A stretch of DNA of 62,382 nucleotides, counting the filler. It is 3 parts of 3 records of this genome, joined end to end, with 100 filler letters (N's around TTAATTAATTAA, not from the genome) between each part and the next. Parts side by side here need not be neighbours in the genome. Positions count along the whole stretch, not along the records: positions 28,271 to 44,401 come from DRR378314_1369; 2 more parts are not named here. One strand, written 5' to 3'. The position numbers and the translations under genes were made by a program. Positions within the stretch are counted from its first letter, which is position 1. Each line of letters opens with the position of its first letter. The notes under the pieces were generated by a model. The model saw only the letters and a list, made by a program, of their open reading frames with translations. It made no database searches and was not told where the DNA came from. This document shows, piece after piece, positions 9,785 through 44,501 of this stretch.

Positions 9785-12263
9785 CTACACAAGCAGCGAA
9801 CGCGAACAGTGCGCTCTGCGTAAGTACAGCGGCAGCTCGAGGAGGGCTCTGTGAAATGCACTGGGCAATTTCGCGTTCAATCTGAGCTTGGTCGCGCCCT
9901 TTCTGCCTTCTCAACCACGGTGCATTGGTTACAGTCGTTTCAGAGAGAACCATTTTCAAAGTGAGAGATCGCTGCAGAAGCCAGCAATTGCTAAAGGCGC
10001 GAGCACAACGAACAAACTCCTCGCGACCGCACGGCGAAAAGTGCACCGGGCACTCACCGCCGTGCGGCAGGCTGCCGTCCGTCACAGCTGCTGCACAACG
10101 GCCGCCTTTGACAACGCCACTCCCCATATCGAATTCGCACGGTGAATACAAAGGGGTATACTCCATAAGAACATATGATTCCATTTGGTTACTTAGGAAG
10201 CACTCAAGGCGCGGAGCTGGCGGAGACGCACTTGCGAGGCGCGAGAGAGCAAGAAGAGCCGCGCACGCGCTCGTTGGAGCATTCCTGTGGAGCGGCGCCT
10301 CCGGGAACCCGCAAAGAGCGCCCGCCTGCAGAGTGCTCCGGTGTCTCCAGCTTGCGCGCTCCCCAGCAAACGTTCCGAAATTTGCAGGCGTAACAGGATG
10401 GATAAGTGTCGTAACGCAGCATACCTGCATCGTACAGAAAAGGCTCTGCAGAAGGCGCCCGCACGGAACAAAGCGCGAGGCCGCAAACACGCTGGAATCC
10501 AGGCTCCGGAGTGGCACCGCAGAGTTCACCGAAGCATTACAGTGCAACACACCAGGGAGGTGGGGAGAAACACGAAACCTAGTATGTAAGCCATTGCATC
10601 ATCGAGCAGACCCTGTGCGGCCGTCTCTGCTCGATATCCTGGACGTACCGCGAATGCAACCTCCCTGTAGCAACACTACAAGCCTGTGAATTTATACTTA
10701 TGAACCTGCACTCCAAATAACGTCGGAAAGTGTGGGAGCTGTTGCTATTCCTCGGGTGTTGGATTGGTTGCCGCGCGAGAGGCTCCATAACAATCCGCGC
10801 CCTAGTTTGCGAGGCCTGGAGCACAAGCCTGCCCTTGAGCGCAGAGAGAGCTCCGTGATAGCCTCTACTTTCGTCCCGCATTCCTTGAACCAAGAGCCTT
10901 GCCGCGCATCTTGGCGAAGCCACCCGTGTTTGACAAGGTGTGTCCTTTTGTTTTGTGCCACACTGCGTCTGAACCATTGAGCATATTCTGGGAGCATCGG
11001 TATTGCCTTTCATGTATTGTATCTTGTGCGGTGAACAAGGAGAAACGATGGGTGCTTTTGTGCTTCAAGCGCACGTGGAACAGACTGCCCCGTCGGTTCT
11101 CGCCCGTGGAGTGTGCATGGTTCCACGCAAGTGACGTCGGAAGGACTGCTCTCTGTGCAGCGTCGCGCGCCCATCGGTGCTGTTCCGTGTCCACAGAATG
11201 CCTCCTTCCCGTAGCATTTTCCGCGTCGTCATTTGCCAAATGCTAAGCGCGGTGAAAGTGCTTATCACTACAATGTTTCCCTGCTAACTGGGCGTTTTTC
11301 GCATACCCTGATACGGGCGTGCAGGAATTTCGGAAGCTTGTCGGAACGGCGGTGCTGAGATACACGAGCGGAAGCTGCAAGCGTTCGCTGCATTGCAAGT
11401 GGAGCGAAAACCCATACCGAGAGTTGTGCGCTCGCGTTTGTGTCTGTTTGGCTCGAAGCTCTTGCTAGGCGGACCGCTGTGGACCAGCAGATATGGCCAA
11501 CAACGATATGCAAAATGCGGTACGATGCATTTGGTGTGCTCAGTGGGATCGCTGCGGCAATGATTCCCCGTTTGCTGTGCGCGCCGTCGCAGCAACTGGA
11601 GCCAGTGCTACAGGGACGGCTTGTATTGCTCTTTGCGTGCTGACACTGCACACAGATACTCGTTTCTCACACACGCGCTCGCACGCTGCGCGACCGTCAC
11701 TTGCGCTGGCGTCCGCGCTTGCCGGAACCTCTTAGTCGCTCGCCCGACGCAGAGCGCTTCGCGACCACCCTCTGCTGCCGCGCTCGTGATCTTGTCGCTA
11801 CATATTTTCTGTCAAGAACCATTGTTTCCGTGCTGTAAAACCCCTTCAATGAGTTTTTGATTAGCGCCGCGTTTGAATCCTCGCAACGGAACCGCTGTTG
11901 CGAAGGTGTGCCGGCTGCGCGCGCGCCCCAGCGCCTCGTTGCCCCTGCGCTGCCCTAGCTCTGCTGCGCTGTCCGCGCGTTCGCCGGCCCCCCCGAACTA
12001 GTGCGCTTCCGTATCATCGCCGCCGTCGCAGTATTGCCCCCGCACGCCGGGCGCGCTTTTGTATGCATGAATTTGATCGTTTTGTGGATCAAACACTCGC
12101 GTGCACACGGAGGTGGCGGCAGCTTTTAGTTACGCGCGCGCACCTTGCAAGGAGGAGAGGAACACGCGGTGCGCGGAGCCACCTCGGGCGCAAGCCCTCC
12201 TCGCCTTGACGCTCACTTCGCTACGGCTCGCACTGCCTTGTGTGGTGGACTGTTGTGCGGCGC

Positions 12264-15200
12264 ATGTCTGGCATATTCGGGGCGCGCTCGGCATGTGTGC
12301 AGCCCGAGGAGCTTGAACGTGCGGATTCGCGCGAGGCCGTACAAGGCGCCGTACACGATGCTGCAGGCTCAGACACGGATATGCATGATGACGACCGGCT
12401 CGGAGCCGAAAACGGCGAAGCAACTTCCGACACGGAAAACATGCAGGACGAAAGCGAGGGCAGCGGTGCGTTTGTCTTGCGGTGCTCCATTTGCGTCACA
12501 CACAGCGCACACAGCGTGGAGCCTCTCCCGGAGCATCCTTTCAAGACGCTATCGCGCGTGAATTTCCACTCTATTTGCGTAGGATGGCATGAAATCTTAT
12601 TTTTTATGTGATTAGAAGGATTCGTGAGCGCCATGATGCTTCCTTTGAAGAGGAGCAAGCCTATCAGCTGCTGGCACGGTCGCAGGACGCGCGCTTCTGC
12701 ACGTATCGCCGACGCCGGGACGACTGACACAGTGCGTGGTGGAAGTGCAGACCGCGGCGCGCGTGCGCTCGTAGATGCAAGTCCTGGCGTAGGCAGTCCG
12801 TCTTCGTTCGATTATTAGCAGTGAGTGTCTCCTTTAGGACCGATTCGTAAAGTTTCGTTGGTAGACTGCTGCTCTTCGATTGTTTGGTATGAGTGAGTGC
12901 TACTCGCGCCACGCGTTCTATGGAGTCGAGCCCTTTTGTGTGCTACCCGCTGCTGCGTACAAGAAGCACCGCGTACCATAGAATGTGCGCCCCCTTGGTC
13001 GCCCTATACAGTGCTGCCCTTCAGCCTTCCCTCCCATCGATACAATGTGCCGGCACTTTAGCCCTTACGCGAGTCGATAGAGAATTTGCAGAGAGGGAGG
13101 CCGGGGAATTCGGCGGTTGCTTTGTCTTGCTAGGTTCTCCCGCGCGCCTCTGCGGGAAGTACGCGCACTGGCCTTTCTGTACACAGCTGCTGTGAGCACG
13201 ACGTACGTGCCCGCTGTGCGAAGACAATTTCCTTGACTTCCAAGTTCGTTGTTGTGCCAACCTGCGCTCTTGCTCTCTGTCCACGTGGATACTTAACTGG
13301 CGGTGTATGTGATTGTGGTTTACGTTTCGTTTCGCGATCATATCCGCGTGTCAAAGCCGCGCGCGCAGAGCGTATTGCCAAACAGTGTCCTGTCGGGGAT
13401 ATCCACCTGCCCCGCACTGACATTGGTGTATTCGTTCCGGGATGTCATTGCCAAGACTTTTGCAATATTGGTTTTGATTTGTTTATTGTTTGTTTGTTTT
13501 TCGTTCCTACCGGCGTCGACTGTGCAGAGCCCTCGAGTGGAAAGTTCATGTGGAAAATTCCAAACTTTTCAAAAGTCACGGATCATAAGCTGTATTCGGA
13601 CGTGTTTACCGTTGCTCGTCAGAACTGGTGCGTTCCAACGTCGGTGACCAAGGTTGTTTGAGAATGAAAATGCGGAATGCGCACGTGCTCCTGTATCACT
13701 GGGCGATCGTTGTTGCTTCGCCGCGTAAAAGTCGGATTGAGTCCGGCTTGCCGTACCTTACGGAGCAAAGTATGCTTTGGTCGGACTCTCGGTACTTCAT
13801 TCCGGGTCCAGTGCTCTACGATGCGATTGTGAGTATTGAAAAAAAAATACCGCATCGCCCTCTGTACAGCGCTCTGCAGGAGCGGCTTTGTTGCTATGTA
13901 ATGCGCATGGATACCTGTGAGCGGCTCGCTGCGCGCACTGGGCCGTTGTTGGCGAGCACGCCCGCTGTCCACCGTTCTTCAGTTTGTACAAGCATTCTTC
14001 TCTGTGCATCTCTTTAGATCCCGTGAAATGGGTCTGCGATGTATATTGATTTGGTTTCTGCTGCTATTCCTTGCGTATGCAGCCGCTGTGCCTGGCGTAC
14101 GATTATGCCTGCGGGGCCTGGCAAAGATCGCTGTGTCCTTGATGCTCTGTTGCACTTGACCTTGACTAACGATGCCCTTTCTTTCGTTTTTATGCTCGGC
14201 TTGAATTCGCAATATCAGGCGGATACTGATTTTCCCGCGCGGAAACAACTGCAACGAGCTGTCCGTGTATCTGGATTGTGCCGACAGCAAGGTGTTGCCG
14301 CCCGGCTGGTCGCGATTCGCGCACTTTACGCTTGCTGTAGTGCATCCTTTCGATCCTCGCAAGACACACAAGCGTGACGCGACGCACCGTTTCTTTTCGG
14401 AAGAGTCCGATTGGGGATTCACGCAATTTTTGAAGCTAAGCGCTCTGCACGACCCCGAAGCTGGGTACTTGAATTGTGACGCCCTTGTTCTTGAGGCTGA
14501 AGTGACTGTGCTGAAGGAGACATCCTTCCAGCATTATGGCCCGAATTGGCAAGGATGGAACTACGATAGTAAAAAGGAAACGGGCTGCGTGGGATTAAGG
14601 AACCAAGGCGCAACGTGTTACATGAACTCCCTGCTGCAGGCGCTCTTTCACACACAGCGCTTCCGACGAGCAGTGTATCAGATGCCTGTGGAGACCGACG
14701 AGGGAACGAGCAGCGTTTCGCTTGCGCTGCAGCAAGTGTTCTATGATCTGCAGTTTAGCAACTCGAGTGTTGGGACAAAAGGTTTGACGCGCGCTTTCGG
14801 ATGGGATTCGTACGAGGCGTTTACGCAGCATGACGTGCAAGAGCTGAACCGGGTGCTCTGCGACAATTTAGAGGAGAAGATGAAGGGCACCTCCGTGGAA
14901 GGAACGATTGCGGACCTTTTCAAGGGCGAGTCGCAAAATTTCATCGAGTGCGTCAATGTGGACTATTCTTCGCGAAGGACCGAGCCGTATTACGACCTGA
15001 GCCTCACGGTGAAGGGGTGTGAAGGTGTGTACGACTCCTTCAAGAAGTATGTCGAAGTGGAGATGCTCGACGGCGACAACCAGTACCAGACTGAGAAGTA
15101 CGGGATGCAAGATGCTCGCATGGGCGTCGCATTTCGATCGTTCCCCAAGGTGCTGCATCTGCACCTTAAGCGCTTCGAGTACGACATCATGCGCGACGCA

Positions 15201-28170: not shown

Positions 28171-28270
28171 NNNNNNNNNNNNNNNNNNNNNNNNNNNNNN
28201 NNNNNNNNNNNNNNTTAATTAATTAANNNNNNNNNNNNNNNNNNNNNNNNNNNNNNNNNNNNNNNNNNNN
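28171..28270. other. Artificial contig-joining spacer (N44-TTAATTAATTAA-N44, stops in all six frames)
   Basis: N runs flank TTAATTAATTAA at 28215-28226; sequence type switches from eukaryotic to bacterial across it. Confidence 0.98.
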
Positions 28271-30775
28271 AGGCAATTCAAGCGCCTCTACTTGAGGTCG
28301 AACTTGAGCCAATACACTAGCCGCCGTCACGCCGCTTAGCGGGTCGGGTTCGCCATACACTGCCAACATGCGCTCGCGGTCACGGCGCATCACCAATGGG
28401 TCAGCGACCTCGGTCGTCACATCACGCATCACTTGATCAGCCGTGATGTAACGCCCCTGTTCGGCGCTCCATACGTTAAGCGACCCGATGTTATCGATAT
28501 CGTTGCGCTGCTCTGGTATCGCTCTAGCGACAATCGGAATCAAGTCGCTGCCGTCACGGTAGATGCCCACCTGACTACCGCTAGTGCTCAACGCCAATGT
28601 GGCCGCCAGGTTCTCGCGGGTAACGCCCAGCCGTCGTGCGGTGTCTTCGGCAAAAATTGGCACCACGGCCTGAACACGGTTACGCCAGCTAGTGCGAACA
28701 CTGACCATATCGGACGTATCACTAAACAGTGCCGCGACTTGATCACCGAGCTGGCGTAATACGGCGGGGTCGCTGCCGTAAAACCTTGCTTCGATCTTGG
28801 CTTTCGGGGCAGGACCAACTTCCAGCGGAGCAATTTTATAGTCGATATCGCTGTGATCACGCTCAAGTACCGCTTCGATATCCGCCATGCGCGCTTGCTG
28901 TATCGCTTTGTTATCGGTTTCAACAATTAGCTGTGAATAGCTGGCATAGCGGTCTTCCGGCGCATAGGTCAAGGTAAAGCGCTGGGCACCGCCGCCTACC
29001 ACGGTGGTGAGATGGCGGACACCCTCCATCTCCATAACCACCTCTTCCAACTCTGCAACCCGCCGCTGGGTTTCCAGAATATCGGTGCCTTCCGGCGTGC
29101 GGTAATCAACAAAGAAGATGGGCGTATTCGAGGCAGGGAAAAAGGCATTTTTGACGGAACCAAAACCGACAACCGCACCTGCCAGTATGACCATCACCAG
29201 ACCAAGTGTTAGCCAACGCAGCCGGATACCTGCCACAATCACGCGGCTAAACAAGCGGTACACCACCCCTTTGTAAGGATCTTCATCAGTGCTGCTAGGC
29301 GCCACATTGCGAAACAGCAGTTTGAAATAGAACGGCGTGAGCGTCAGCGCTGTCAGCCAACTTAGCAGCAGTGAATAGAGCAACACATAGAACAGCGAGC
29401 CGATAAATTCACCGGTGGTATCTGGCGACAACCCAATCGGTGCAAAGGCGGCAACTGCAATCAGCGTGGCTGCCAGCAGAGGCCATGCGTTTTGCCGAAC
29501 CACCTGATGCGCTGACTCACGAATACTTTGGCCACGCTTTAGGCCCACCAGCATGCCTTCAGTGACCACAATGGCATTATCGACCAGCATCCCCAAGGCG
29601 ATAATCAGTGCCCCCAGCGAGATTTTTTCCAATTGCAAACCGTGAATGCGCATCAGCATAAAGGTGCCAATAATGGTAATCAGCAGAATAAAGCCCATTA
29701 GTAGGCCGCTGCGCCAGCCCATAAACAGCATGAGCACCACAATAACGATGGCCACCGCCTGGATCAGACTGATTAAGAAACCGGATACCGCCTCATCCAC
29801 CACGCTCGGCTGGTCATAGACCACGTTGAGCTCCATACCTAACGGGGTGCGTGCCTCCAGTTCGTCAAGCCGCTGTTCAAGTCGGGCACCTACTTCGACC
29901 ACGTTGACGCCGCTTTCAAACGAGATGCCCAGGGAAATAGCCGGTCGCCCCATGTCGCGATAAAGCTGCTGTGGTTGCTCGGTCAAGCCACGGGAAACCT
30001 CTGCGATATCGCTCAGCCTTACCAGCTCGCCGTTACCTTCACTAACGATTAACGCGCGTAAATCCTCAATATCGGCGGAACTACCCGAAGGCGTTACTCG
30101 GAAACGCTGCCCCCCCTGCTTCAAGTGACCCGAGTCCACTACGGCATTTTGCGTATTCAGCAATTGCTGGAGTGAACTTAGCGGAATGTTCAGCGCACGT
30201 AGCCGCTCTCGGTCGACTTCAATGAAAATACGCTCGTCTCTCACCCCCGCCAGCGACACCTTTTCAACGCCGTCGACCAAGGCGAGTTCACGCTTAAGAA
30301 ACTCGGCTTGGCTTTTCAAATCGGGCATGGCATAGCCATCACCGGTCAGGTTAATCATCAAGCCGAACACATCGCCAAAGTCATCGTTAACTCGTGACTG
30401 GCTGGCGCCTGGCGGCAAGGCGGCCTGCGCATCGCCAACTTTACGGCGTAATGAATCCCACAGCTGCTGAAGCTCATCGTTTTGCACCGTGCTTTGCAGC
30501 TCGATGGTAATTTGCGAAAACCCGTTTGAACTCACCGAGCTGATGCGTTTAATCGCGGGCATTTCCTGAATGGCTTCTTCCAGTGTCGAGGTGACTTCCT
30601 GCTCCACCTCTTCTGGCGTAGCACCAGGATACTGGGTAGTGACTAGCGCATTGCGAATGGTAAATTCAGGAAACTCAAGCTGCCCCATGCCAGTGAAAGC
30701 GAGCGCCCCGCCGAAGAGCAGTACCACGGTCATTAAGTAACTAGCGGCCCGGTGGCGTAAGAAGTAATCAACCAT
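28271..30775 (-). CDS. RND efflux transporter permease subunit (AcrB/AcrD/AcrF family), C-terminus truncated by contig end
   Basis: TQYPGATPEEVEQEV, VNDDFGDVFG, LGALIIALGMLVDNAIVVTE (TM4 motif), multiple TM helices. Confidence 0.95.
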
Positions 30776-42020: not shown

Positions 42021-42974
42021 TTATTGCATCCGGTCGGCGAAGTCTAGCAACACCTTTTGGCCTTTCGGCTGGAGCGCCACCTCAATAGCTTGACGCCATT
42101 CCTGGCAAGGAAATACTTGATAATTTGGCATATCTGCCTGGCTCAAAAGTCGCCAGATATGGGAGAACTTATGTTGCCAAGCCTCAGCAGACATCCTGGC
42201 TAAACTGTCGCGTAGATGAAACTTTCTATAGTGAGCCCTAGGTTTGGCATCCAACTGAATGGCCTGCCCAGTCAATAATCCATAGGCAATAAACATTCCG
42301 TCAGGTGCCATTAACTGCAGGATATTCGATGCCACTGGGCCGCCCAAAGAATCAAATACCAAGTCAGACTCCCGCGCAACATCCGAGATCTTCGACGCAT
42401 CTCGAATAGATACCGGTTTGATACCGAGCTGTTCCAGTCGGGCAACTCGACTCTCGGAGCGGTATATGCCAGCAACTTCCCTGGCGCCATGATGATATGC
42501 CCATGCTCCAAGATAATCAGCGCAATTCGACCCAGCTCCACTTAGAAGAACACGCTTCCCCTTTACAGGCCAAGTCTCAAGCATTGTAAGGGCAGCTAAA
42601 GGGTTAATGTAGGCACGTGCCGCGACCACGTCAGGGATGACATCTGGGACGGGCACTGCGAGAACAGGATCACAATCCAAAATAGTCTGCCAAGTACCAT
42701 CGCCTCGTAATGGGAGAACTCGCTTTCCGATCAAGTAGGCGTATTTTCGCGGGGCATCAATGACCCGACCAACCCCTTCATAACCAGCGACAGCAGGGAG
42801 CTTTATACGGTGAGAATAAGCACCGGAGATGGGAATCAAGTCAGATGGGTTAACTGGGGCACATAACATCCTCACCCTGAGCTTGCCCTCACAGCGTGGA
42901 ACGTCCGCGATTTCCATATTCAATGTTTCAAGCGGCTGTCCGAACGCGCGAAAGGTGAGAGCATGACGACGCAT
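42021..42974 (-). CDS. MDR-superfamily NAD(P)H oxidoreductase, enoyl-thioester-reductase/quinone-reductase-like (no catalytic Zn ligands)
   Basis: APVNPSDL, PAVAGYEGVG, GTWQ, AYINPLAA, DLVFDSLGG, YGLLTG, KVLL; SD GAGG before ATG 42974. Confidence 0.88.
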   Translation of the reverse strand: MRRHALTFRAFGQPLETLNMEIADVPRCEGKLRVRMLCAPVNPSDLIPISGAYSHRIKLPAVAGYEGVGRVIDAPRKYAYLIGKRVLPLRGDGTWQTILDCDPVLAVPVPDVIPDVVAARAYINPLAALTMLETWPVKGKRVLLSGAGSNCADYLGAWAYHHGAREVAGIYRSESRVARLEQLGIKPVSIRDASKISDVARESDLVFDSLGGPVASNILQLMAPDGMFIAYGLLTGQAIQLDAKPRAHYRKFHLRDSLARMSAEAWQHKFSHIWRLLSQADMPNYQVFPCQEWRQAIEVALQPKGQKVLLDFADRMQ

Positions 42975-43033
42975 GGGTACCTCTAACATAGCGGATGAAT
43001 TTCCATGGCCTAAATATGAATACGGATAAATGC

Positions 43034-43552
43034 TCAAGGCTGTGGTCTAGACGTCGAGTCACTTAAAGGTAATGCATATCCAGACTTGACCGTGTCCATG
43101 GAAACCAGCGTTGTGAATGAGCGTACGTTGGAGTGCTCCATCAGTGCCTCACGGGTAAAATCTTCGTACTCCTGAAGCGAACGAGTCACTACTACCAGCA
43201 CGAAGTCCAAACTCCCTGTCACGTAATAACACTGCTGAACATTAGGGTGTTCCCGCATCTGCCGCTTATACGCATCAACATGCTGGTTACGTTCATATTC
43301 GAGATCGACTCCAACAATGCAGGTAGTCGGCAAGCCTAGCGCTTTAGCATCTAGCCGCGCCTCCTCCTTGGCAATAACACCCCGCTCCCTTAACCGTTTG
43401 AGCCGTCGTTGCACCGCAGCCGCCGATAAGCCAACCGCCTGCCCGATACTCTCCCCCGTAACACGCGTGTCGTACTGATAAATAGCCAAAATTCGGCGAT
43501 CAAAATCATCCAGTTGCTCCGCGCGCAGCTCGCCCGCAGTTGAGTCACTCAT
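43034..43552 (-). CDS. Lrp/AsnC family transcriptional regulator
   Basis: LDDFDRRILAIYQ, VGLSAAAVQRRLKRLRERGVI, VQQCYYVTGSLDFVL. Confidence 0.95.
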   Translation of the reverse strand: MSDSTAGELRAEQLDDFDRRILAIYQYDTRVTGESIGQAVGLSAAAVQRRLKRLRERGVIAKEEARLDAKALGLPTTCIVGVDLEYERNQHVDAYKRQMREHPNVQQCYYVTGSLDFVLVVVTRSLQEYEDFTREALMEHSNVRSFTTLVSMDTVKSGYALPLSDSTSRPQP

Positions 43553-43644
43553 TTAGCAGTCTCCCTGCAATGGCCACCCAGAATATGCGGCCAGAAAAAA
43601 CGTATTACCCCTTAAGCTAACTCAACACAAGCGGAGACAACACC

Positions 43645-44401
43645 ATGAGCCAAATACGTACGATCCTGATCGATAGCGACCCACGATTAAGAATAGCATC
43701 ACGCACAGTCGAAGAAATAACGCCCGACGTAACAGCGGTGATTGCGGCATTGCATGCCACACTTGCCGATTTCAGAGCGCGTACCGGCTTTGGCCGCGCC
43801 ATCTCATCCCCTCAGATAGGCGAGCCCTTGCGTATCGTTGCGGTTCAACTGGGTGGCCAACCCTTTACATTAATCAATCCACTCATTGTCTGGCACAGCG
43901 AAGAGACGCAGCTGGTATGGGACGACTGCATGAGTGTACCCAATCATATTGCCAATGTTAGGCGCCACGCCAGCATCAGTCTGACTTACCGGAACGAAAG
44001 CGGCAAAACCTGCCACTGGAATCACCTTTCCGCTTCACTTGCTGAACTGATCCAGCACGAGGTAGACCACCTTGATGGCGTGCTAATGGTGGATCGGATA
44101 GAGCATCCGGAGGATTTACAGCCTATCTCACAACACCACCAACTGATTGCACCCCGGCGAAGCGAACATCGCATCAAGCTGGATCATATTGCCTCTGCCG
44201 CCAGCCGCATCAATCCCACCTTCCTGGCATCCCCACAGTATCGCTCTCCCACGCTTGATGCCGCGTTAGGGGTTGCCATAACACTCAAGGTCGAAACGCT
44301 TAATCCCCTACGCAATTTCAAAGGGCGAGGCGCAGACCACTTTGTCTTCCATCATATTCAGCAAGAGCAACCTGCCCCGCTGGTTTGCGCCAGCGCCGGG
44401 A
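43645..44401 (+). CDS. Fusion: atypical peptide deformylase-like domain + N-terminal part of a PLP-dependent Thr/Ser dehydratase-like (fold-type II) domain; truncated by contig end
   Basis: One uninterrupted ORF: DPRLR, GRAISSPQIG, LINP, WDDCMSVP, QHEVDHLDG (PDF fold), then SPQYRSPTLDAALGVAITLKVETLNPLRNFKGRGA and LVCASAG (PALP family). Confidence 0.85.
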
Positions 44402-44501
44402 NNNNNNNNNNNNNNNNNNNNNNNNNNNNNNNNNNNNNNNNNNNNTTAATTAATTAANNNNNNNNNNNNNNNNNNNNNNNNNNNNNNNNNNNNNNNNNNN
44501 N
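44402..44501. other. Artificial contig-joining spacer (N44-TTAATTAATTAA-N44)
   Basis: Same structure as 28171-28270; genes are truncated on both sides. Confidence 0.98.

Follow-up and report, generated by a model that had tools for sequence, protein, structure and literature searches.

Peptide deformylases (PDFs) are antibiotic targets and are usually regarded as ribosome-associated enzymes with one purpose. What, then, is to be made of a bacterial gene in which a PDF fold runs in frame into the start of a pyridoxal-phosphate (PLP)-dependent enzyme: is the fusion genuine, how widely does it occur, and what might the two domains do together? The gene lies on the plus strand at 43645..44401 of the 62,382-nucleotide stretch of DNA analysed here (the window, three genome parts joined end to end). 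From its sequence and that of its relatives, it is a real, conserved and unstudied bacterial gene, the first half of which lies in the window.

The fusion gene and its extent

Translation of positions 43645-44400 on the plus strand yields 252 residues with no stop codon, bearing out the proposal of the first-pass annotation that a single frame joins a PDF fold to the start of a PLP enzyme. A GGAG ribosome-binding site at 43633-43636 stands 8 nt ahead of the ATG. The first-pass annotation had treated 43645-44401 as an ORF, and the open frame stands, but it ends with the contig and not with the gene, a truncation that was missed; what the window holds is the 5' part of the gene (codons 1-252 and one base). 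The remainder is outside the window, which continues at 44402..44501 with an artificial contig junction consisting of an N-run, TTAATTAATTAA and another N-run. A second copy of the TTAATTAATTAA linker occurs at 28215, and the contig that follows the 44501 junction is another one, opening mid-polA.

Recovery of the full gene, sought in related genomes, was successful in two members of the same genus (G004 and G024), both of which carry 82%-identical orthologs as uninterrupted genes of 497 codons with a complete PALP domain (226.8 and 224.9 bits). Full-length 497-aa orthologs in related Halomonas-group genomes are 82-90% identical, and a database protein of 497 aa is 90.5% identical. Logan contigs from two independent public sequencing runs, X1 and X8, cover positions 43400-44401 with 4 and 60 differences, respectively, and extend 870 and 1795 letters past the end of the window's contig; both cross the domain junction with 0 gaps, and the stop or frameshift between the domains that would have spoken against a fusion is absent. 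Of the 64 positions at which 20 fused homologs are all identical, the window fragment matches 63, the exception being A55S.

The deformylase-like domain

The N-terminal Pep_deformylase-like domain (aa 5-155; 43657..44109, plus strand; Pfam PF01327, 3e-33) scores 115 bits against a cut-off of 22.8 and matches profile positions 2-153 of 156, and an ortholog scores 126.5 bits. The motif readings of the first-pass annotation are each present in the sequence, motif I as GRAISSPQ at 43792-43815 and motif II as DDCMS at 43921-43935, both on the plus strand, and so is the PLP lysine described below. Motif III, QHEVDHLDG (44053-44079, plus strand), matches Q-H-E-x-D-H-L-x-G and is invariant in 20 of 20 fusions. 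The Cys, His and His metal ligands and the Glu and Gln, which had been described as retained, are invariant in the 20 fusions and in 39 rows of the wider subfamily.

Motifs I and II depart from the canonical pattern. The motif I consensus is G-Phi-G-Phi-A-A-x-Q (Giglione 2004, as quoted in the available part of a 2025 survey of accessory PDFs, PMC12690207); the family instead has G-R-A-[ILM]-[AS]-A-P-Q or, as set against ordinary Def, G-R-A-[IL]-[AS]-[AS]-P-Q. Arg stands where the first hydrophobic residue is expected and Ala where the second Gly is, and both the Arg and the Gln are invariant. For the canonical E-G-C-L-S of motif II the domain has D-D-C-M-S, in which Cys, Ser and D93 are invariant and D94 is at least 90% conserved. 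Residues invariant in 20 of 20 aligned fusions are G48, G50, R51, A52, A55, P56 and Q57 in motif I, W92, D93, C95 and S97 in motif II, and Q137, H138, E139, D141 and H142 in motif III. Two equivalog models are missed by window and ortholog alike, TIGR00079 (87.5 and 95.9 bits; cut-off 103.95) and NF001159 (88.7 and 100.6 bits; cut-off 125). The domain belongs to a distinct accessory PDF subfamily recognisable by its motifs, G-R-A in the first and D-D-C in the second.

With ordinary Def (EC 3.5.1.88; PF01327; types 1-4) the fusion has in common the full-length Pfam match, the exact motif III, the metal ligands with the Glu and the motif I Gln, and about 33% identity to the ordinary def found in its genus. 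It differs in having D-D-C and G-R-A where ordinary Def has E-G-C and G-Phi-G, and in falling below the NCBIfam equivalog cut-offs; moreover, type-1 Def ends in a ribosome-docking tail, whereas the fusion continues into a PLP domain of 320 residues. Each of the 41 related genomes contains an ordinary def, and all five genomes that contain the special PDF (four as a stand-alone protein, one fused) also possess one, scoring 147-178 bits on PF01327 as against 105-140 bits for the special PDF. In all of these genomes the special PDF is an extra copy, and it is probably not the housekeeping def.

The suggestion that the domain is not a ribosomal deformylase gains indirect support from its always accompanying an ordinary def, but members of the same PDF subfamily also stand alone, without the PLP enzyme, in Acidobacteriota, Gemmatimonadota and Bacteroidota. 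The stand-alone genes lie in heterogeneous, housekeeping gene contexts, which is compatible with an ordinary second deformylase. In addition, a change designated A48S, equivalent to A55S of the window, was found to be compatible with normal PDF activity in the available part of the 2025 survey (PMC12690207), and to that extent the correspondence leaves room for a peptide substrate for the PDF domain.

The linker and the PLP domain

An inter-domain linker (aa 156-195; 44110..44229, plus strand), which includes an N-terminal helix ahead of the PALP core, leads into a fold-type II PLP domain assigned by Pfam PALP, of which the window holds the first 57 residues (aa 196-252; 44230..44401, plus strand). 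Both the Schiff-base lysine K226 (FKGRGA; codon at 44320-44322, plus strand) and the S-A-G of the S-A-G(-N) loop precede the cut, which falls after the G. Both Pep_deformylase and PALP were found in the Pfam scan that had been proposed for this gene, and the PF00291 score of the fragment (29.3 bits) is below the cut-off of 35 only because 57 of the 295 profile positions are present. In the 20 aligned fusions, the Schiff-base Lys K226, the S-x-G-N loop (S250-A-G-N253), the Gly-rich phosphate loop (G352-N-G354), E450 and G479/N481 are all invariant.

An AF2 model of the 497-aa ortholog (pLDDT 90.3, pTM 0.87) contains an ordered linker, with a defined strand and helices at pLDDT 83-95, and suggests that the two domains form a fixed compact body. 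The best Foldseek match is TdcB (2gn0; TM (target) 0.93, rmsd 2.0, 318 columns), and the serine racemases listed have TM values of 0.84-0.91. The equivalogs tested on the PLP domain comprised IlvA, TdcB, EutB, BhcB and threo-3-hydroxyaspartate ammonia-lyase; the NCBIfam dehydratase equivalogs were all missed, the best score being 184.6 bits against a cut-off of 378.75 (TIGR01127), and the TdcB model gave 150 bits against a cut-off of 453. The structural model predicts a TdcB-like domain of the dehydratase type. The fold, the F-K-x-R-G-A lysine, the S-A-G-N loop and the Gly-rich loop are common to the fusion and the TdcB/IlvA/serine racemase group, whereas the loop Asn is followed by His in that group and by Trp or Phe in the fusion; compared with the TdcB/IlvA group, the fusion is without an ACT domain and has an N-terminal hydrolase domain.

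Distribution and origin of the architecture

A search for the architecture, as the first-pass annotation had recommended, found PF01327 and PF00291 together in 119 of the 120 best database clusters, at 48-54% identity. The source names of the fusion clusters are Halomonas, Cupriavidus, Deinococcus, Thermoanaerobaculia, Holophagales and Actinomycetota, and also Bordetella and Kushneria, and the sole source name given to the proteins themselves is 'pyridoxal-phosphate dependent enzyme'. Within the genus of the window the fusion is found in only 2 of 25 genomes. Mean pairwise identity among fusions is 57.5% for the PDF domain, 59.5% for the PLP domain and 50% for the linker. The architecture defines a populated family that spans several phyla and is under selection. 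A full-text literature search found no description of the PDF-PLP architecture, in agreement with the earlier statement that no enzyme of this kind has been characterised, and the supplements of PMC12690207 may list the PDF subtype. An ESM Atlas search gave no usable match.

Phylogenies bear on how many times the fusion arose. On the PDF side, 34 of 34 fused domains fall in one clade (SH-aLRT 96), and in a first PLP tree 34 of 35 fused domains fall in a clade of 41 (support 81). A single origin is supported by these two trees but fails in an enlarged PLP tree that includes the Actinomycetota-type fusions P0282 and P0286, two proteins absent from the PDF tree; there the fusions do not form one clean clade, and the tree requires 9 changes, of which at least 4 are forced. 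The trees were built from PLP domains of at least 280 residues and PDF domains of at least 135 residues, leaving out L001 and L002 (duplicates of L094 and L093), and the enlarged PLP tree left out a further 12 rows that were near-duplicate or very long-branched.

Gene neighbourhood

An Lrp/AsnC-family regulator gene (43034..43552, minus strand; Pfam AsnC_trans_reg and HTH_AsnC) lies divergently, 92 bp upstream of the fusion gene, and a divergent Lrp/AsnC gene adjoins the fusion gene at L093/L094, L014, L095 and L098 as well as in the window. Among 111 neighbouring ORFs of 22 loci, Lrp/AsnC alone recurs across lineages, and the fusion gene is probably controlled by this divergent, amino-acid-responsive regulator in several lineages, that of the window included. 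A promoter scan of the short 92-bp divergent region returned 0 sigma-70-like sites. Downstream of the regulator and on the same strand is a Zn-dependent alcohol-dehydrogenase/quinone-oxidoreductase-like gene (42021..43037, minus strand; Pfam ADH_zinc_N and ADH_N), an arrangement that is syntenic in Halomonas only; the Halomonas neighbours, namely this Zn-ADH-like gene and genes for a MocR-type regulator, a PhzF-like and a DeoC-like protein, were not found at non-Halomonas loci. A conserved operon was looked for in the fused clade and none was found, and the absence of a conserved operon partner fits a self-sufficient enzyme.

Unfused neighbouring pairs, for which the first-pass annotation had suggested a search, did not appear: in loci reaching up to 10 kb on each side, no PDF-like gene accompanies the PLP-alone genes at 76 loci, and no PLP ortholog lies near the PDF-like-alone genes at 35 loci. 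Both the special PDF subfamily and the PLP subfamily consist mostly of unfused proteins. Genome-wide, five PDF-like-only genomes contain 0 clear PLP orthologs, their best matches scoring 157-206 bits, with one ambiguous match of 315 bits; conversely, a PDF-like gene is found in one of five PLP-only genomes. Such poor co-occurrence lends no support to a general pathway link between the PDF-like and PLP families. In one freshwater lineage, a stand-alone PLP ortholog sits between a methyltransferase gene and asd, with an aspartokinase gene upstream, a context that points to plain threonine metabolism. Long open frames upstream of stand-alone PDF-like or PLP genes (L035, L040, L054, L061, L034, L019, L096, L144 and L172) were considered as other fusions and rejected; they contain no further Pfam domain and are taken as read-through of non-coding DNA.

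A candidate two-step function

The reading that we tentatively favour, and to which we assign nearly an even chance, is that the protein is a self-contained, two-domain catabolic enzyme in which a PDF-like step is followed by PLP-dependent deamination. The N-terminal domain would be a PDF fold with its catalytic machinery whole (a Cys-His-His metal site, a general-base Glu and an oxyanion Gln) and with a substrate cleft altered by the motif I Arg and by Asp-Asp in place of the Glu-Gly that precedes the motif II Cys, and the C-terminal domain would be a PLP-dependent ammonia-lyase of the TdcB/IlvA type. In the first step, the metal domain would remove an N-formyl group, or another very small N-acyl group, from an amino acid, or a very short peptide, whose amino group is blocked, thereby freeing the alpha-amino group that the PLP enzyme requires and releasing formate as a by-product. 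In the second, the PLP domain would form an external aldimine with the deblocked product and carry out alpha,beta-elimination to give a 2-oxo acid and ammonia. Activity of the two domains, and their action in sequence, are inferred, and a beta-hydroxy amino acid such as N-formyl-Ser or N-formyl-Thr is a guess at the substrate.

Parallel fusions bear on this proposal. Proteins that combine CN_hydrolase with PALP (P0137, P0280 and P0281, on separate contigs) score 400-410 bits on the PLP subfamily profile, which lies inside the span of the orthologs (357-539 bits), and proteins that combine an M20 aminoacylase with PALP (the P0212 group) score 281-288 bits, the M20 part of the latter reaching 284 bits on TIGR01891 (cut-off 153.75). 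The M20 fusions fall into three clusters, seen on 1, 1 and 3 contigs, and member P0273 lies on a further contig. In both types the C-terminal PLP subfamily is the same as, or nearest to, that of the PDF fusion, and the N-terminal part is, as in the PDF fusion, a C-N bond hydrolase of the kind that deacylates N-blocked amino compounds. The hydrolase folds differ, being of the nitrilase superfamily and the M20 metallopeptidase type rather than the PDF fold, and these fusions are much rarer, with three clusters at 90% identity each, from metagenome contigs only. The joining of one PLP subfamily to nitrilase-type and M20 N-deacylases supports the deblock-then-deaminate reading. The earlier suggestion of a bifunctional small-molecule enzyme gains indirect support from the equal conservation of the two domains and from the nitrilase and M20 fusions, but not from the 76 and 35 loci at which unfused pairs are absent.

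Two known systems invite comparison. In Exiguobacterium, a def-fmt fusion likewise places a PDF in frame with a second enzyme; it complements a def-fmt mutant and is the only PDF fusion reported in the available part of the 2025 survey (PMC12690207). Its partner, however, is the formyltransferase that serves the same cycle of translation, whereas the PDF of the present fusion has non-canonical motifs and is joined to a PLP enzyme of amino-acid catabolism. Ectoine catabolism (EutB with DoeB/DoeB2) likewise brings together a deacylase and a Thr-dehydratase-like PLP enzyme in one pathway. It is regulated by Lrp/AsnC and MocR-type regulators, and regulators of both types flank the fusion gene in Halomonas. 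The DoeB/DoeB2 deacetylases, in contrast, do not have a PDF fold, and the fusion family is found in many non-halophiles, so the comparison is no more than a lead. A EutB/ectoine identity for the fusion itself was rejected because its scores on EutB models, 180 and 153.5 bits, are far below cut-offs of ~413.

A broader claim, that small-molecule metabolism has taken over the PDF fold from the ribosome and that the fusion is the first N-formyl-amino-acid deformylase/deaminase, in a modular 'deblock-and-deaminate' class, is one that we regard as somewhat doubtful. If it is true, one Ser/Thr-dehydratase-like PLP subfamily has been joined repeatedly to different N-deacylases (PDF-like, nitrilase-like and M20), and the stand-alone Arg-type PDFs would not be spare peptide deformylases but free N-formyl-amino-acid deformylases. 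To our knowledge, N-formyl-amino-acid deformylase activities lack assigned genes, and the fusion could supply one. Coupling of the domains would mean that the PDF fold has another role, in metabolism, and would define an Arg/Asp-Asp PDF subtype that is at present lumped with def or hidden under the name 'pyridoxal-phosphate dependent enzyme'. It would also bear on how def copy number is read in environmental bacteria, and on possible sinks for actinonin-type inhibitors.

Alternative explanations

Of the alternatives, the one that survives best, although unlikely, is that the protein combines two independent activities, an accessory peptide deformylase acting on nascent chains or formyl-peptides and an ordinary Ser/Thr dehydratase, fused for co-expression or stability. 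According to the available part of the 2025 survey (PMC12690207), accessory PDFs are common, and changes in their motifs often leave them active; the housekeeping contexts of the stand-alone special PDF, its lack of a co-occurring PLP enzyme, and the single lineage in which the stand-alone PLP ortholog adjoins asd downstream of ask all agree with such an arrangement. It is harder to reconcile with the retention across several phyla of the fusion and its ordered linker (50% identity; pTM 0.87), or with the shared logic for which the M20 and nitrilase-type fusions argue. Moreover, the C-terminal segment that docks type-1 PDFs on the ribosome, as described in the available part of the survey (PMC12690207), is here replaced by a dimer-forming 35-kDa domain. 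Were the domains independent, the fusion would be a curiosity of domain architecture.

We consider it rather improbable that the PDF-like domain serves to sense or regulate, binding a metal, a peptide or a formylated ligand and controlling the dehydratase as ACT domains do in IlvA-type enzymes. A more distant relative (P0253) does consist of PALP and ACT, whereas the fusion has no ACT domain; DUF2087 and GNAT domains also occupy the N-terminal position among the PLP relatives; and motifs I and II deviate as they do in type 3 PDFs, which are reported as weakly active or inactive in the available part of the survey (PMC12690207). Against this, the Cys, both His, the Glu and the Gln are invariant in the 20 fusions, which share about 50% identity, as well as in the 39 subfamily rows; a domain used for binding alone could be expected to have lost one or more of these residues.

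That the PLP domain, instead of being an ammonia-lyase, racemises or epimerises the deblocked amino acid or carries out a beta-replacement on it seems improbable. Its best PDB sequence matches are serine racemases (5cvc, 4e-41; human SR, 1e-33), and the failure to reach any NCBIfam dehydratase equivalog leans the same way. The second Ser of the serine racemase loop is the second catalytic base; in alignments with 5cvc, 3l6b and 3hmk, the racemase S-S-G-N-H corresponds to S-A-G-N-W of the fusion, with Ala in place of this Ser, and the top structural match is TdcB.

An artefact, whether a chimeric contig, a frameshifted gene pair or a decaying pseudogene in the window's strain, is barely credible and largely refuted already at the family level by the intact orthologs in G004 and G024, the X1 and X8 contigs across the junction, the architecture shared by the 119 clusters and the 63 retained invariant positions, even though the gene is incomplete in the window and the contigs of two runs from one strain (X2 and X3) break at 44267-44276 with a 10-base overlap. 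By eye, the loose ends of the X2 and X3 contigs resemble imperfect inverted repeats, and an insertion element could be present in the gene of that strain.

A deformylase-PLP fusion gene at a contig end

The plus-strand reading frame at 43645-44401 opens with an ATG 8 nt downstream of a GGAG and translates to 252 residues without a stop, joining a complete Pep_deformylase (PDF) domain (residues 5-155; Pfam, 115 bits against a cut-off of 22.8) to the first 57 positions of a PALP domain (residues 196-252), which scores 29.3 bits, under its cut-off of 35, because the remaining domain is missing. NCBIfam peptide-deformylase models match the first part and threonine ammonia-lyase/EutB-type models the second, all under their curated cut-offs. 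Every motif quoted in the first-pass annotation, which had proposed an in-frame fusion of a PDF to a PLP-dependent enzyme, is present in this translation: G-R-A-I-S-S-P-Q (43792-43815), D-D-C-M-S (43921-43935), Q-H-E-V-D-H-L-D-G (44053-44079) and the lysine of F-K-G-R-G-A (44320-44322), all on the plus strand, with V-C-A-S-A-G as the final residues. The proposed fusion therefore stands, apart from its truncation: it is the contig rather than the ORF that ends at 44401. Artificial linkers, consisting of N-runs around TTAATTAATTAA, lie at 28172-28276 (linker at 28215) and 44402-44501. The window is a chain of at least three draft contigs and not a single molecule, and since the contig ends at 44401 against such a linker, the fusion gene is represented by its 5' half only. 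The contig starting at 44502 opens mid-polA, with the 3'-5' exonuclease and polymerase domains only.

The complete gene could be recovered from relatives, as had been proposed: two of the 41 related genomes, G004 and G024, both from the same genus, carry 82%-identical orthologs without internal stop, whose 497-codon genes encode PF01327 (5-156) and the whole of PF00291 (194-479; 227 and 225 bits). A 497-residue database protein shares 90.5% identity with the window fragment, which matches 20 fused homologs at 63 of their 64 invariant positions, A55S being the sole exception. Logan contigs of the public sequencing runs X1 (4 differences) and X8 (60 differences) span 43400-44401 unbroken and with zero gaps, extending 870 and 1795 letters beyond the window's contig end, and the Logan contigs of four public runs report no indel across the fusion region, leaving no sign of the interdomain stop or frameshift considered at first pass. 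Uninterrupted orthologs and gap-free contigs show the fusion to be real, and that it should be an artefact is highly improbable.

In another strain (runs X2 and X3), contigs break within the fusion gene at 44267-44276, their ends overlapping by 10 bases; the 24-28 letters left loose on either side look, by eye, like imperfect inverted repeats (about 15 of 19), a pattern typical of an insertion element that has duplicated its target. At the codon of the family-invariant Asn253 these contigs read GAC, and the fusion gene may be inactivated in this strain.

Distribution and predicted structure

When 5.8 billion clusters were searched with the full-length ortholog, the architecture proved to be shared well beyond the genus: of the best 120 matches listed, 119 have both Pfam domains in 463-535 residues, with 48-54% identity outside the genus. 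Source names include 'pyridoxal-phosphate dependent enzyme', 'peptide deformylase' and 'threonine dehydratase/peptide deformylase', and the organisms named among the best 120 are Halomonas, Cupriavidus, Deinococcus, Thermoanaerobaculia, Holophagales, Actinomycetota and Gammaproteobacteria; a separate search added Bordetella genomosp. 9 and Kushneria aurantia. The family is compact, since full-length fusions reduce to about four representatives at 50% clustering. Full-text searches for the PDF-PLP architecture returned nothing relevant, and the fusion is absent from the searched literature, in keeping with the first-pass statement that no characterised enzyme of this kind was known. A 2025 Mol Biol Evol survey of accessory PDFs (PMC12690207) describes one def-fmt fusion, from Exiguobacterium, as 'an unusual case'; the words 'pyridoxal' and 'dehydratase' are absent from its main text. 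The fusion combines two familiar enzyme families in a new architecture and includes a distinctive accessory PDF subtype.

By sequence, no PDB chain was found that covers both domains, and the longest fold alignment among the PDB chains listed takes in 329 of 497 columns. An AlphaFold2 model of the 497-residue ortholog, built with a 20-sequence alignment, has a mean pLDDT of 90.3 and an ordered inter-domain linker (pLDDT 83-95) of one strand and two helices; because its pTM of 0.87 is high for a two-domain chain, the model suggests a defined mutual orientation of the domains. With mean pairwise identities of 57.5% and 59.5%, the two domains are equally conserved, and the linker (50%) is conserved too.

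An accessory deformylase subfamily

Twenty fused proteins are invariant at G48, G50, R51, A52, A55, P56 and Q57 around motif I, at W92, D93, C95, S97 and P99 around motif II, and at Q137, H138, E139, D141, H142, L143, D144 and G145 around motif III. The metal ligands, catalytic Glu and motif-I Gln read from the window copy at first pass are therefore retained throughout, and motif III has its canonical form. Motifs I and II depart from the canonical G-Phi-G-Phi-A-A-x-Q and E-G-C-x-S (quoted in PMC12690207): in the fused domain Arg takes the place of the first hydrophobic residue and Ala that of the second Gly, and the Cys is preceded by Asp-Asp, so that the deviation noted in the window copy extends to the fused family.

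These changes are not peculiar to the fusion, since they recur in 35 stand-alone proteins of about 180-200 residues (loci L023-L055, L057 and L061, on genome contigs), with G-[FY]-G-R-[AG]-I-A-A-P-Q as motif I and W-D-D-C-x-[SC]-F-P or W-D-A-C-L-S-F-L as motif II. Against a profile of the fused PDF domain these special PDFs score 131-206 bits, versus 39-112 for the ordinary PDF genes in the same loci. Their sources include Acidobacteriota, Gemmatimonadota, Bacteroidota, Paraburkholderia susongensis and a Heliomicrobium MAG, and no description of the subfamily was found in the searched literature. An ordinary def with a higher PF01327 score accompanies the special PDF in all five genomes checked (four stand-alone, one fused) and is present in 41 of 41 relatives of the window genome, while the fusion occurs in only 2 of 25 members of the genus; the special PDF domain is therefore an accessory paralog. 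In a 91-domain PDF tree all 34 fused domains form one clade (SH-aLRT 96), and fused and stand-alone special PDFs lie apart from 22 ordinary defs (support 93).

Six Rhodobacterales loci (L067, L068, L074, L080, L082 and L083, about 9990-11500) carry three PDF genes in tandem, a cluster already reported (PMC12690207). The third is probably inactive, because E-E-[AG]-S-P lacks the metal-binding Cys and Q-H-Q-I-D-H replaces Q-H-E-x-D-H.

The PLP domain and its other partners

Invariant positions of the PLP domain in the 20 fusions are K226 in F-K-G-R-G-A, S250-A-G-N253, the G352-N-G354 loop, E450 and G479-x-N481. Its closest PDB sequence matches are serine racemases, then TdcB and IlvA, and its top fold match is TdcB (TM 0.93, rmsd 2.0); its scores against NCBIfam equivalogs (IlvA, TdcB, EutB, BhcB and others) all stay far below the cut-offs. 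In the printed alignments S-S-G-N-H of serine racemases becomes S-A-G-N-W, and because Ala replaces the second Ser, the racemase's second base, the domain is predicted to be more likely a lyase than a racemase.

Most members of the PLP subfamily stand alone: of 80 loci recovered from metagenomes with a PLP-only alignment, 12 are fused, 1 is fused but contig-cut and 67 have the PLP domain alone, and scanning genomes gave a further 2 fused and 8 stand-alone loci. An exhaustive phmmer search found longer proteins that share 40-49% identity with the fusion PLP domain over their C-terminal 300 residues, resolved by Pfam as CN_hydrolase + PALP (P0137, 613 aa), Peptidase_M20 + M20_dimer + PALP (P0212, 651 aa), GNAT + PALP (P0155), DUF2087 + PALP (P0129) and PALP + ACT (P0253). 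Against a profile built from the fusion's PLP domain, on which orthologs range from 357 to 539 bits, the DUF2087 form scores 452, CN_hydrolase forms 400-410, the GNAT form 346, M20 forms 281-288 and the ACT-type threonine dehydratase 213 bits. The CN_hydrolase form is replicated in three clusters (P0137/P0280/P0281; 60-100% identity, a separate contig each), as is the M20 form (P0212/P0273/P0398/P0399; three clusters, 59-100% identity, contig counts 1, 1 and 3), of which member P0273 lies on an additional contig; all seven are uncharacterised metagenome proteins. The M20 part belongs to TIGR01891 'amidohydrolase', an N-acyl-amino-acid hydrolase group (284 bits versus 153.75), and the CN_hydrolase part is closest to N-carbamoylputrescine amidase, under that model's cut-off. 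In a 112-row PLP tree the CN_hydrolase forms make one clade (95) and the M20 forms another (100), both weakly placed within the stand-alone radiation. Thus three different C-N hydrolases of an N-deblocking kind have been joined N-terminally to the same kind of PLP enzyme.

Gene neighbourhood

In Halomonas the fusion gene is flanked on one side by a divergent Lrp/AsnC regulator, then a Zn-ADH-like gene (window 42021-43552), and on the other by a convergent MocR-type (GntR + aminotransferase) gene, then a PhzF-like isomerase gene (locus L093, span 10977-13658). Clustering of neighbours at 127 loci places a divergent adjacent Lrp/AsnC gene in 3 fused and 4 stand-alone loci, confirmed directly in the window, L014, L095 and L098; among 111 neighbour ORFs of 22 fused-clade loci, AsnC domains occur three times and any other family at most twice. 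No other neighbour recurs across lineages in either set. Lrp/AsnC and MocR regulators are also paired at ectoine-catabolic loci; an ectoine-catabolic EutB identity for the PLP domain was set aside, as the domain falls short of the EutB models. In a freshwater lineage (L109, L111, L114, L116-L118, L122, L125, L143) a stand-alone PLP ortholog lies directly between a class-I methyltransferase and asd (aspartate-semialdehyde dehydrogenase), with aspartokinase upstream; the 6-kb neighbourhood also holds a PhyH-type dioxygenase on the opposite strand.

The unfused neighbouring pairs envisaged at first pass did not appear, none of the 76 PLP-alone and 35 PDF-like-alone loci examined (up to 10 kb each side) carrying the other half as a neighbouring gene. 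Nor do the two co-occur well across whole genomes: none of five PDF-like-only genomes has a clear PLP ortholog (one ambiguous match of 315 bits), and one of five PLP-only genomes has a PDF-like gene.

Possible function and number of fusion events

PLP enzymes require a free alpha-amino group, which is absent in N-formyl, N-carbamoyl and N-acyl amino acids, and placing a deacylase before a deaminase is therefore chemically sensible: the N-terminal deacylase would unblock the amino group and the PLP domain would then deaminate. The best-supported reading, close to the bifunctional enzyme of the first-pass annotation and held tentatively, is accordingly of a putative self-contained enzyme that deblocks, then deaminates, which fits the parallel N-deacylase fusions, the missing operon partner and a regulator of the amino-acid type. 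What speaks against it is that the two families normally occur unlinked, which would make the coupling new to the fused lineage, and that stand-alone special PDFs, neighboured by unrelated housekeeping genes, look by context like ordinary spare deformylases. Independent activities of the two domains are a somewhat unlikely alternative to this sequential reading. A regulatory role for the PDF-like domain is a good deal less likely, given that all catalytic residues are invariant, and a different chemistry of the PLP domain is slightly less likely again.

The PDF tree, together with a first PLP tree in which 34 of 35 fused proteins fall in a clade of 41 (support 81), suggests a single origin of the fusion. 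The PDF domains of Actinomycetota-type fusions score only about 129 bits against the fused-PDF profile, and adding these fusions to the PLP tree breaks the fused group, with 9 changes, at least 4 of them forced.
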